Assembly (NCBI GenBank): GCA_016193315.1
Contig: JACPSJ010000001.1
Location: 91,981 to 155,980, forward strand
Direction of reading: 5' to 3'
DNA from: Candidatus Kerfeldbacteria bacterium
Lineage (GTDB): Bacteria > Patescibacteriota > Patescibacteriia > SBBC01 > CAIJZX01
Length of the DNA stretch: 64,000 nucleotides
Under the pieces are notes generated by a model. That model saw only the letters and a list, made by a program, of their open reading frames with translations, had not been told where the DNA came from and searched no databases. The translations under genes and the position numbers were made by a program. How positions within the stretch are numbered: position 1 is the first letter of the stretch; every line of letters begins with the position of its first letter. This document shows, in pieces, positions 53,590-54,047 of this stretch.

Positions 53590-53763
53590 GGGGAGGTGGA
53601 CCGCAATCCCGCCCCACATCGGCCCCAACGAGATAGCCTTTCATACGGCCACGTAGCCAAGGGGTAAGGCAGGAGTCTGCAAAACTCCTATTCGCGGGTT
53701 CGATTCCCGCCGTGGCCTCAAACTAGGAAAATGGGCCGATGTGGGGCGGGACGAATCCCCTCC
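53590..53763. repeat. inverted repeat (GGAGG...TCCCGCCCCACATCGGCC / GGCCGATGTGGGGCGGGA...CCTCC) bracketing tRNA-Cys
   Basis: 18-nt perfect complementarity (53607-53624 with 53735-53752), plus outer GGAGG/CCTCC; the tRNA sits in the loop. Confidence 0.5.
53647..53718 (+). tRNA. tRNA-Cys (anticodon GCA)
   Basis: Acceptor GGCCACG/CGTGGCC, discriminator U. Anticodon stem GGAGT/ACTCC, loop CTGCAAA. Confidence 0.85.
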
Positions 53764-53820
53764 AGGCCTGAATGCGGGAGTAGTTTCCGGCGAAGCCGGA
53801 TCCGGCTTCGCCGGACAGCA

Positions 53821-53965
53821 GTACCCCGCACCACATCGATTGAAAAGTTAGACGCGGGTGTAGTTCAGTGGTAGAACGTCTCCTTGCCAAGGAGAAGGTC
53901 GGCGGTTCAAGTCCGCTCACCCGCTCCGTTGAAACCAAAATCAATCGTTGTGGTGCGGGGCTTGC
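53821..53965. repeat. inverted repeat (CCCCGCACCACATCGATTG / CAATCGTTGTGGTGCGGGG) bracketing tRNA-Gly(GCC)
   Basis: 19-nt arms with one mismatch. Core CCCGC(A/C)CCACATCG is shared with the tRNA-Cys flanks. A further CCCGCACC-GGAC-GGTGCGGG hairpin lies at 53975-53996. Confidence 0.5.
53854..53925 (+). tRNA. tRNA-Gly (anticodon GCC)
   Basis: Acceptor GCGGGTG/CACCCGC. Anticodon stem TCTCC/GGAGA, loop TTGCCAA. Confidence 0.85.
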
Positions 53966-54047
53966 CAAGGAAGAGGTCGTCCCGCACCGGACGGTGCGGG
54001 ATCTCCCGCTCCAAACCATGAATCTCGCACTAGACGAGCGACACCCC

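Follow-up and report, generated by a model that had tools for sequence, protein, structure and literature searches.

Why are two transfer RNA (tRNA) genes each held between the arms of a long inverted repeat? This question is raised by the Cys-Gly-Leu tRNA cluster within a stretch of 64,000 nt from a Candidatus Kerfeldbacteria genome (the whole stretch is called the window in the following). An initial annotation had reported that tRNA-Cys and tRNA-Gly(GCC) are enclosed by inverted repeats with a common core, and both repeats are indeed found (arms of 19 and 20 nt, respectively). That is, the observation was correct, but its interpretation was incomplete, as older outer tRNA copies had been overlooked. 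Each repeat-tRNA-repeat unit is nested within an older, disrupted copy of the same tRNA. Since the units lie inside these disrupted copies, we take the repeats to mark where an insertion begins and ends, and not to be a stem built for processing. Judged from sequence comparison, the modules are probably (we assign a probability of roughly 0.6) hairpin-ended, intron-like mobile replacement cassettes that take over from the tRNA they disrupt.

Nested tRNA genes in the Cys-Gly-Leu cluster

The seven tRNA genes of the window were called with ARAGORN and Rfam. Loci of relatives (referred to by L-numbers) were gathered via the uracil-DNA glycosylase (UDG) gene adjoining the cluster, whose product is 100% identical to a Candidatus Kerfeldbacteria protein; this provided ~150 loci after deduplication (~0.95 Mb). 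Since they are sampled by this one linked gene, many cases are orthologous and counts do not represent independent events. The parts of the window's cluster are as follows.

53532..53560 (+): promoter-like site TTGATC-17-TATAGT with TG preceding the -10 hexamer, upstream of the entire Cys-Gly-Leu cluster
53573..53606 (+): 5' part of the older, disrupted tRNA-Cys, GGCCTGGTAGCCAAGTGG...CCGCAA, a direct repeat that aligns locally to the inner tRNA
53607..53625 (+): left arm of the Cys inverted repeat, TCCCGCCCCACATCGGCCC, i.e., left end of the insert (repeat finder)
53647..53719 (+): inner, intact tRNA-Cys(GCA) (Rfam tRNA, 66.7 bits), presumed to be the working copy
53733..53751 (+): right arm of the Cys inverted repeat, GGGCCGATGTGGGGCGGGA, i.e., right end of the insert (repeat finder)
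53752..53769 (+): 3' part of the older tRNA-Cys, CGAATCCCCTCCAGGCCT (from sequence)
53774..53785 (+): 5' start of the older, disrupted tRNA-Gly(GCC), GCGGGAGTAGTT, aligning to tRNA positions 1-12
53786..53815 (+): hairpin doublet of 2 x 15 nt, TCCGGCGAAGCCGGA + TCCGGCTTCGCCGGA, lodged in the D-loop of the older tRNA-Gly
53816..53823 (+): rest of the D-loop of the older tRNA-Gly, CAGCAGTA (cf. CAGTGGTA)
53824..53843 (+): left arm of the Gly inverted repeat, CCCCGCACCACATCGATTGA (repeat finder)
53854..53927 (+): inner, intact tRNA-Gly(GCC) (Rfam tRNA, 73.2 bits)
53941..53960 (+): right arm of the Gly inverted repeat, TCAATCGTTGTGGTGCGGGG (repeat finder)
53961..53979 (+): anticodon loop, 3' strand of the anticodon stem and variable region of the older tRNA-Gly, CTTGCCAAGGAAGAGGTCG (direct repeat)
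53980..54001 (+): hairpin TCCCGCACCG-GA-CGGTGCGGGA in place of the T arm of the older tRNA-Gly
54002..54013 (+): 3' acceptor strand of the older tRNA-Gly plus CCA, TCTCCCGCTCCA
54048..54134 (+): tRNA-Leu(TAA), last gene of the cluster, without enclosing repeat

The 5' part of the older tRNA-Cys reads GGCCTGG TA GCCAAGTGG ... CCGCAA, i.e., it comprises the 5' strand of the acceptor, a remnant of the D-arm and the anticodon loop up to GCAA, within which it stops. Beyond the insert, it is continued by a T-loop remnant, the 3' strands of T-stem and acceptor, and the discriminator, such that GGCCTGG can pair with CCAGGCC at 53762-53768. Everything from the 3' strand of the anticodon stem through the 5' strand of the T-stem is missing. 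The older tRNA-Gly also retains a pairing acceptor (GCGGGAG with CTCCCGC at 54003-54009), lacks the 3' strand of the D-stem and the 5' strand of the anticodon stem, and has its T arm replaced. Its segment CTTGCCAAGGAAGAGGTCG shows 89% identity to the inner tRNA-Gly and is identical to the plain tRNA-Gly of L004. The doublet in its D-loop is a perfect 30-nt palindrome; both this doublet and the hairpin at 53980-54001 have orthologs in L087 (the latter as TCCCGCTCAGCGGGA). Neither ARAGORN nor Rfam calls the outer copies as tRNAs.

The 5' part of the outer tRNA-Cys represents the allele that serves as inner tRNA-Cys in L010, and CGAATCCCCTCCAGGCCT differs from the respective counterpart there (CGAATCTCCTCCAGGCCT) by a single mismatch. 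We had considered the acceptor pair GGCCTGG/CCAGGCC versus GGCCACG/CGTGGCC as a case of compensatory evolution that would reveal selection on the outer shell. This was rejected, because the outer copy of the window is simply another tRNA-Cys allele, namely the inner copy of L010.

The Cys arms (19 nt, 107 nt apart) are 100% complementary, the Gly arms (20 nt) to 95% with a single T.T mismatch. In both units, linkers of 10-21 nt between arms and tRNA stay single-stranded. The arms are paired in the minimum-free-energy fold, and the region folds far better than its shuffles (z = -9). Thus, the initial proposal that each tRNA would occupy the loop of a long duplex in the transcript agrees with the predicted fold. 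The same holds for the outer GGAGG/CCTCC noted beyond the Cys repeat (at ~53592-53596 and 53759-53763), which is also paired in this fold. A consensus scan of the plus strand of 53300-54400 for promoter-like sites found only 53532..53560 and none inside the cluster; the precursor from which the inner tRNAs are released would therefore include the relic halves as well.

For tRNA-Leu(TAA), the best downstream self-match scores 23 at a cut-off of 22, i.e., there is no convincing relic. Directly downstream of this gene, positions 54001-56000 are of low GC content (0.48 versus ~0.57) and hold an open reading frame (ORF; 54298-55056) that by eye resembles an S-adenosylmethionine-dependent methyltransferase. 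This stretch is possibly a small island integrated at the tRNA.

Other tRNA genes of the window

The nested build is found for 5/7 tRNAs of the window, and a sixth (tRNA-Arg) shows an enclosing stem only. The bracketing initially described for two tRNAs hence extends to the following three nested units and to tRNA-Arg.

16425..16556 (+): tRNA-Ala(GGC) unit with the tRNA at 16439-16513
16951..17121 (+): tRNA-Ala(CGC) unit with the tRNA at 17001-17073
62471..62769 (+): tRNA-Gly(TCC) unit with the tRNA at 62567-62638

For tRNA-Ala(GGC), the arms TCCCGCGCCAATT (16425-16437) and AATTGCGGCGGGA (16514-16526) are followed by a relic T arm and acceptor strand (16527-16556). The tRNA-Ala(CGC) unit starts with an older 5' half that reaches to the anticodon (16951-16985), followed by the arms ACCAGTACCTTTT (16986-16998) and AAAAGGTGCTGGA (17075-17087) around the inner gene and a 3' tRNA piece with terminal CCA (17088-17121). 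The older copy of tRNA-Gly(TCC) is split exactly between TTTC and CAAGCTGATG, with its 5' half at 62471-62504 and its continuation at 62707-62716. The insert in between (62505-62706) begins with TCCCGC and terminates with GCCGGA. Here, too, a hairpin (62720-62760) takes the place of the T arm and is followed by an acceptor remnant (62761-62769). The stem around tRNA-Arg is AT-rich (15 Watson-Crick and 2 G.U of 18 pairs) and lacks the end motif described below.

Some further elements were noticed close to these units. Within 16696-16805, the palindrome ATGTTCCACGAGGAACA(T) occurs three times, the third copy (16760-16777) lying just before a near-consensus promoter upstream of the tRNA-Ala(CGC) region (TTGACA at 16777-16782, 17-nt spacer, TATAGT at 16800-16805). 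The palindromes look like a triple operator for repressor control of that promoter. A tRNA-sized segment at 16879-16947 (GGGGATG TA GTTCA ... CGTCCCC C ACCA) has a pairing acceptor stem, is called by neither ARAGORN nor Rfam and is probably a further decayed tRNA shell. Another tRNA-Ala-like 3' relic is found at ~17140-17190. Finally, the intergenic hairpin doublet TGGCGTAGCCA + TCCGGCTACGCCGGA at 21191-21219 resembles in style and loops (CTACG/CGTAG) the hairpins of the tRNA-Cys relic of L056, and the nearby minus-strand sequence CGTGGCCTC is similar to a tRNA-Cys 3' end, such that this neighborhood may be another buried relic.

Enrichment of enclosing repeats, relics and end motif

Whether such repeats are specific to tRNAs was assessed for 165 Patescibacteria tRNAs in comparison to 3000 random control segments. 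Enclosing repeats with a score of at least 14 are found for 8/165 tRNAs but only for 9/3000 controls (Fisher p = 7.5e-7), i.e., they are ~16-fold enriched. When the 99th percentile of the controls is used as threshold, 26/173 tRNAs have a relic of themselves within 400 nt. These relics are polar: upstream relics cover tRNA positions 1-18 or 1-33/37, downstream relics positions 34-75 or 62-75, with a few weaker matches as exceptions. The end positions of the relics place the breaks in the D-loop or the anticodon loop.

Insert ends follow the motif (T/C)CC(C/A)GCAC...GTGC(G/T)GG(A/G), usually followed by C. All long repeats with this motif (7/7) hold exactly one tRNA, with a span of 107-164 nt. 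Occurrences of CCCGCACC are concentrated near tRNAs (11/36 versus 2.7 expected, p = 5e-5), and the repeat ends are conserved between distant lineages. Rfam searches of flanks, hairpins, inserts and the GTCGAG element (see below) returned no family other than tRNA, even at E <= 1.

A viral vector of the modules was considered and rejected, as none of the 45 viral matches to the end motif holds a tRNA. About 15 of these matches stem from an apparently unrelated giant-virus-like repeat family that was picked up via the searched 9-mer. This family is found on AT-rich, giant-virus-like IMG/VR contigs with a GC content of 0.33-0.38 (L170, L176, L178, L183, L186, L188, L190, L194, L198, L201), which carry several modules of ~110 nt with conserved ends (CCCCGCACCCC(C)TCCT...AGGAGGGGTGCGGGG) and variable AT-rich interiors. 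They are flanked by hairpins such as TCTGGAAATCC-GAA-GGATTTCCAGA or GGGAACC-AA-GGTTCCC and lie between divergent genes, in L188 with an Rpb3-like RNA polymerase subunit nearby. These modules surfaced only through the 9-mer shared with the bacterial end motif.

Empty, occupied and multiply nested loci in relatives

The Cys-Gly-Leu cluster is conserved among relatives, but its states vary between plain, occupied and multiply nested. In L004 and L169, it is plain and compact, with spacers of 32-46 nt and neither repeats nor relics. In L001, L002 and L167, the window's Cys site is occupied, i.e., an insert follows the GCAA of an older tRNA-Cys, with the arms TCCAGCACCAGTTTGGCC/GGCCAAACTGGTGCTGGA or CCCCGCACGAGTTTGGCC/GGCCAAACTTGTGCGGG. 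In L005, L086 and L087, an older tRNA-Cys that is entire or almost entire is split between CTG and CAAAACC by an insert that starts with TCCCG and finishes with GCGGGA, without duplicating any target bases. A complete tRNA-Pro is seamlessly split in its anticodon loop in L014 (between TTTGG and GAGCGAG). That is, wherever the older copy is complete, the junctions are seamless and lack a target-site duplication, and breaks fall into the anticodon loop or D-loop. Taken together with L010, the repeats are thus present in seven of the orthologous loci named here and absent in L004 and L169. Absence in close relatives had been named initially as a sign of a chance local duplication; the mixed presence is the pattern expected of insertion.

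In L087, tRNA-Cys shows three nested layers, and tRNA-Gly corresponds to the Gly composite of the window in each of its parts, from the hairpin doublet of the D-loop via the enclosing repeat to the T-arm hairpin. Nested layouts also occur in distant lineages, i.e., for tRNA-Leu(GAG) in L038, with perfect 20-bp arms beginning with CCCCGCACC, and for tRNA-Phe in L062. Overall, the layout is observed in other Patescibacteria for Cys, Gly, Pro, Phe, Leu and probably Val. Furthermore, the D, anticodon and T loops of relics contain small hairpins of the form TCNNGC-N3-GCNNGA, either singly or as inverted doublets. The 15-mer TCCGGCGAAGCCGGA from the D-loop of the window's tRNA-Gly relic has an identical counterpart in L167, where it lies within the anticodon loop of a relic tRNA-Leu.

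The flanks of the inserts are homologous to the empty target, i.e., the outer tRNA halves match the plain allele. In L005, L007, L086 and L087, the inner tRNA-Gly has exactly the sequence of the plain allele found in L004 and L013, while that of the window differs from it at several positions.

A conserved element of ~110-140 nt was also observed, which starts with GTCGAG or GTCGAT and contains ...CGAGACGGGC...GAGGCACCGG... It is found in L007 (5275-5440), L086 (2150-2238), L087 (4870-4975), L013 (5205-5310) and on the minus strand of L166 (near 4230-4400 and 5020-5130). It is located at the D-loop break (..GTGG or ..ATGG) of older Gly, Cys or Leu tRNAs and always upstream of the inner tRNA. 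The element could be a structured RNA or part of a cassette promoter or leader.

Small GIY-YIG genes inside disrupted tRNAs

Some relatives carry a gene within the module. In L062, a 78-amino-acid ORF directly upstream of tRNA-Val is a GIY-YIG domain (Pfam PF01541, E = 2e-18), and ORF and tRNA lie between two copies of a tRNA-Val-like fragment. GIY-YIG ORFs beside an inner tRNA and inside a relic of the same tRNA are found in L007 (Gly), L056 and L074 (Cys), L062 (Val) and L089 (Leu), with both relic halves visible in L007, L056 and L074. The family members comprise ~80-90 amino acids, i.e., the bare catalytic domain. The Gly junctions of L007 (GCGGGTGTAGTTCAGTGG on the left, GTCGCCCGCTCCA on the right) are the same as those of the ORF-less module of L005, and the 18 nt and 14 nt on its outside recur unchanged in the tRNA-Gly of L004. 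The modules of the window therefore look like ORF-less relatives of endonuclease-bearing cassettes.

A tRNA-specific GIY-YIG family was rejected, since in a blind check only one of three picked homologs is located at a tRNA. Therefore, the association is real but not exclusive. The other two ORFs are each bracketed by an 11-bp inverted repeat, and such pairing of the ends seems to characterize these small units in general.

Outside of nested tRNAs, the surroundings of GIY-YIG ORFs vary. At the blind-checked locus with a tRNA, L216 (1913-2010), whose host is probably not a Patescibacterium, tRNA-Pro(GGG) is followed by three tandem copies of its 3' end plus trailer (GCGGAG(C/A)CCCGATTATTTT...), with a GIY-YIG ORF 77 nt upstream. 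L215 (1440-1790) and L217 (1440-2060) hold mini GIY-YIG ORFs bracketed by CCTGTGAAAT.../...ATTTCACAGG, in L217 as a tandem pair with a degenerate second copy. The locus they are inserted in resembles a diversity-generating retroelement, with a formylglycine-generating-enzyme (FGE)-sulfatase-type target gene accompanied by an HRDC gene and an adenine-rich stretch of AAC repeats. In the complete Berkelbacteria genome CP011213 (L018, 3390-3790), a GIY-YIG ORF without nearby tRNA has direct hairpin copies on both sides, AGATCTCTCGAC(T/A)(A/T)CGCTCGAGATGACAT (TCTCGA...TCGAGA).

Stem pairing and predicted folding

Orthologous stems differ in sequence between genomes, and nearly always both strands are altered together. 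Respective counts are as follows.

Gly stem, window vs. L087: 13 pairs same, 4 both-side changes still paired, 0 one-side changes, 1 unpaired in one of the two
Cys stem, window vs. L001: 13 pairs same, 5 both-side changes still paired, 0 one-side changes, 0 unpaired
Cys inner stem, L005 vs. L086: 12 pairs same, 1 both-side change (G-C to A-T), 0 one-side changes, 0 unpaired

Moreover, L087 shows a matching 2-nt deletion in both arms. Such paired changes could reflect either selection for pairing or an arm-to-arm correction by template switching.

To relate the stem to the folding of the inner tRNA, predicted cloverleaf probabilities were compared to those with deleted arms. The stem increases the value for the window's tRNA-Gly (0.74 versus 0.41) and for L038 (0.75 versus 0.53), while no difference is predicted for the window's Cys and Ala units, L087 and L010. 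In silico, the stem renders the inner cloverleaf independent of the outer flanks. A role as a folding clamp is not generally supported by these predictions.

Shared core and stand-alone hairpins

The core common to the left arms of Cys and Gly is CCCGC(C/A)CCACATCG, found as a direct repeat. Allowing for at most two mismatches, it has seven matches in the window (1.5 expected), four of which are at the Cys-Gly locus. Pairs of CCCGCAC...GTGCGGG within 160 nt occur four times in the 64 kb, nearly all at tRNA loci, versus 0.13 expected from dinucleotide shuffles. The initial annotation had explained the common core by duplication of the whole repeat-tRNA-repeat unit. This is not the explanation favored by the relatives, where orthologs of the Gly unit (L087) and of the Cys unit (L001, L002, L167) all have different inner-arm sequences; the likeness of the two cores is therefore specific to this genome. 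From the sequences, it looks like a later exchange between two neighboring modules.

Hairpins with the base CCCCGCACC/GGTGCGGGG or TCCCGCACC are located at 26436-26459, 53980-54001 and 62720-62760. Among these, one is not part of a tRNA unit.

26436..26459 (no strand): stand-alone hairpin CCCCGCACC-TTATGC-GGTGCGGGG between convergent ORFs, with T/A runs on its flanks

It has a 9-bp stem base in common with the Gly repeat and looks like an ordinary bidirectional terminator, in line with its initial assignment. For this hairpin the initial coordinates were exact, whereas the other two had been placed at 53975-53996 and 62726-62767, and the right Cys arm at 53735-53752 instead of 53733-53751. The REP-like (repetitive extragenic palindromic) family that had been proposed from these hairpins appears rather doubtful: the shared base CCCCGCACC stands, but there are few copies in the 64 kb and no GTAG head, and no RAYT-type gene was seen in searches that covered GIY-YIG and two signature motifs. 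TCNNGC hairpins as a family general to the window were rejected, since their excess outside of tRNA loci is only mild (5 versus 1.5 expected, for short loops in the 64-kb window).

A replacement-cassette model and its alternatives

How could such nested genes arise? In the proposed scenario, the modules would be, or derive from, mobile cassettes that enter an intact tRNA gene and carry along a replacement copy. Because the cassette supplies this replacement, the insertion would be harmless to the cell. Spread could be accomplished by gene conversion upon endonuclease cleavage, for which the conserved tRNA halves would provide the homology arms, and loss of the endonuclease gene after fixation would leave the ORF-less state of the window. 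The inner copy would then be an intact target again, such that re-invasion would generate new-inside-old nesting as in L087. The identity of inner tRNA-Gly genes with the plain allele of relatives makes the inner copy itself a target, which explains the nesting, and argues against a version in which the cassette brings a 'resistant' allele. In the transcript, the paired ends would fold the insert into a closed stem, as known for intervening sequences of bacterial ribosomal RNA (rRNA), and RNase P together with 3' processing would release the inner tRNA, possibly aided by RNase III cutting the stem. The insert ends may act in this way at the RNA level, or at the DNA level.

A more specific version, which we put forward only tentatively and consider rather doubtful, is a selfish 'cut and replace' element. 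Here, the predicted mini GIY-YIG protein, possibly recognizing structure, would cut intact tRNA genes in their loops, the tRNA-bearing hairpin-ended cassette would be copied into the break, the host would come to depend on the tRNA of the element, repeated invasion would nest the copies, and the TC..GA hairpins would be emptied or minimal forms.

Several observations weigh against the replacement-cassette model. The search for GIY-YIG ORFs in the window found none, and only 1/3 of the blind-checked GIY-YIG homologs is next to a tRNA. The search for a viral or plasmid vector gave no candidate, as none of the 45 viral matches to the end motif comes with a tRNA. Nothing visible marks the inner tRNA as a 'resistant' allele, since it is plain in relatives and the differences seen in the window are not linked to resistance. 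With sampling through UDG, many of the supporting cases are orthologous. Concerning the stems, template-switch correction of quasi-palindromes is an established mutational process that could yield paired changes, too. As a sign of RNA-level selection, G.U was compared to A.C among mismatches on the sense strand; the ratio of 11:5 is not significant (p = 0.1), and the scoring favored G.U. Finally, the in silico folding benefit of the stem is inconsistent across loci, and the stem of L001, which overlaps the 5' end of the tRNA, is even harmful to the predicted cloverleaf (0.32 versus 0.88).

One alternative are dedicated processing stems like those of rRNA operons, as proposed initially. Here, a duplex of leader and trailer would be cut by RNase III to free the pre-tRNA, and the relic halves would be incidental. 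The position of the tRNA, looped out from a duplex of 19-20 bp by unpaired linkers of 10-21 nt, the pairing kept across genomes, the tRNA 3' TCCA within the stem (L005, L086, L087), the motif-less AT-rich stem of tRNA-Arg and the folding z-score of -9 would all suit this explanation. On the other hand, the plain compact clusters of L004 and L169 do without any stem and the L001 stem competes with the acceptor stem, while the co-occurrence of stems with relic halves and the match of their ends to cargo-less small hairpins inside relics point to an insertion origin, such that we consider the explanation unlikely. No RNase III signature motif was found in the window, which covers only ~7% of the genome; RNase III processing is possibly a secondary role of the stem and as such compatible with replacement cassettes. 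In another route, REP/REPIN-like elements would be moved into tRNA loops by a RAYT-type (HUH/Y1) single-strand transposase and tRNAs would be captured between inverted copies. TCNNGC-N3-GCNNGA hairpins in relic D, anticodon and T loops, both as singlets and as inverted doublets, are what such elements would leave, as are the identical 15-mer TCCGGCGAAGCCGGA in different tRNAs and loops of two genomes and insertions without target-site duplication; moreover, GCGAAGC, which forms the core of the hairpins, is a classic example of a DNA mini-hairpin of very high stability. Still, the route appears improbable, given that the excess of hairpins outside tRNA loci is modest and that, by inspection, there is neither a conserved GTAG head nor a conserved junction target, with GTAG/CTAC only inside some loops. 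No Y1 transposase was seen, which is weak evidence as only GIY-YIG and two signature motifs were sought. This route also leaves unexplained why the cargo is always the disrupted tRNA type.

Could the outer copies themselves be working genes with intron-like inserts, the halves being joined or held together as in archaeal intron-bearing or split tRNAs? Halves that together make a complete outer tRNA split in the anticodon loop are indeed found in L005 (Cys), L087 (Cys) and L014 (Pro), and paired insert ends would unite the halves similar to the leader sequences of split tRNAs (PMC10714607, PMC4390854). In the window, however, the outer Cys and Gly lack whole stem strands and are called by neither ARAGORN nor Rfam. 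In addition, inspection of L005 and the window shows that, at the junction, the stem of the insert closes a symmetric internal loop instead of a bulge-helix-bulge, and Rfam detects no group I core, which renders working outer genes highly improbable. Equally remote, and disfavored, are scars of integrase islands or tandem duplication plus decay, with inverted repeats that arose by chance or as terminator hairpins. In favor of such scars, integration classically occurs at tRNA genes, 3' relics are often seen downstream (e.g., the three tandem 3'-end relics of L216 and a Cys 3' relic in L014), a low-GC stretch lies behind the window's tRNA-Leu and the hairpin at 26436 is terminator-like. However, integration duplicates the 3' part of a tRNA only. 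Here, a 5' part is located upstream and a 3' part downstream of a complete inner gene. Nor does tandem duplication yield inverted repeats, whose enrichment is far above chance and whose ends are conserved in distant lineages. No integrase was noted among the ORFs flanking the tRNA clusters, which were not screened against a family library.

If replacement cassettes are the correct explanation, most tRNA genes of this small genome (~0.86 Mb) would be second- or third-generation replacements by insertion cassettes, and tRNA genes across a phylum-level group would be a battleground for a mobile element that spares its host via a spare copy. Bacteria would then have their own equivalent of the disrupted archaeal tRNA genes. 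This would also provide a concrete role for the widespread mini GIY-YIG proteins of unknown function, and would account for horizontal exchange of tRNA alleles between lineages. It would also be a warning to annotators that, in these genomes, tRNA-like fragments as well as long stems around tRNAs are structured remnants and not noise. Furthermore, the stems offer a testable case of how a working tRNA is extracted from a precursor with competing copies of its own halves.

Comparison with known systems

Within the searchable full-text literature, which does not cover all journals, neither nested tRNA genes nor cassettes of GIY-YIG plus tRNA were found to be described for these bacteria. In its workings, the arrangement most resembles two known kinds in combination, a homing-endonuclease cassette and an rRNA-type intervening sequence. 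For SegB of phages T4/T6, the endonuclease gene and flanking tRNA DNA are copied into the cleaved homologous locus (PMC2988022, PMC13096335). The likeness lies in a small GIY-YIG gene among tRNA genes, with the ORF directly beside the tRNA in L007, L056, L062 and L089. In contrast to SegB, the modules reside in a bacterial chromosome, inside a disrupted copy of the same tRNA, and bring a full replacement; the predicted GIY-YIG proteins comprise no more than the catalytic domain (~80-90 amino acids), and the window's modules are ORF-less. As for homing cassettes in general, occupancy is polymorphic at a fixed site (empty in L004/L169; occupied in L001/L002/L005/L010/L086/L087/L167 and the window), and an endonuclease gene lies in the insert of L007, L056, L074, L062 and L089 but not in those of the window.

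With intervening sequences of bacterial rRNA, the modules share the insertion into a loop of a structured-RNA gene, pairing ends and a sporadic distribution among relatives. Those of 23S rRNA are removed at the RNA level by RNase III, and the rest of the molecule is undisturbed. A tRNA, however, is non-functional in two pieces, and here the insert supplies a new one. Bacteria of the candidate phyla radiation (CPR) abound in rRNA insertions (PMC11270868). Many of these are group I/II introns, while the tRNA inserts lack a ribozyme core: covariance models detect no group I catalytic core, and without their tRNA the inserts measure 60-130 nt, compared to the more than ~200 nt needed. The long duplex formed by the flanks of a mature RNA within the transcript is reminiscent of the RNase III stems of rRNA operons; here, it is tied to insertion, and some orthologous loci (L004 and L169) lack it.

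REP/REPIN elements and miniature inverted-repeat transposable elements (MITEs) resemble the modules in their palindromic singlets or inverted doublets, in terminal inverted repeats around a variable center, and in the lack of an ORF. Terminal inverted repeats are thus present as in MITEs, but there is no target-site duplication at the junctions of L005 (CTG/CAAAACC), L014 Pro (TTTGG/GAGCGAG) and the window's tRNA-Gly(TCC) (TTTC/CAAGCTG), no GTAG head and only few copies per 64 kb, and the cargo matches the disrupted gene. Integrase islands differ by the 5' parts duplicated upstream of the inner genes; no integrase is among the ORFs listed by the cluster, for which no family-library screen was done.

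Disrupted tRNAs of archaea, which include transposing introns as well as split and tri-split tRNAs, are also broken in loops, especially the anticodon loop, have related inserts in different tRNAs and use complementary sequences to unite the halves (PMC10714607, PMC4390854, PMC4033280). The bacterial cases described here differ in that there is no bulge-helix-bulge, in the usually dead outer gene and in a cargo that consists of a second, complete tRNA. Finally, in 'fractured genes', a homing endonuclease gene is found between the halves of a split-intein gene (PMC2677866), i.e., in both systems a free-standing endonuclease gene is lodged in a gene broken in two. While the halves are rejoined there by protein trans-splicing, here the broken gene is abandoned and a new copy is substituted.

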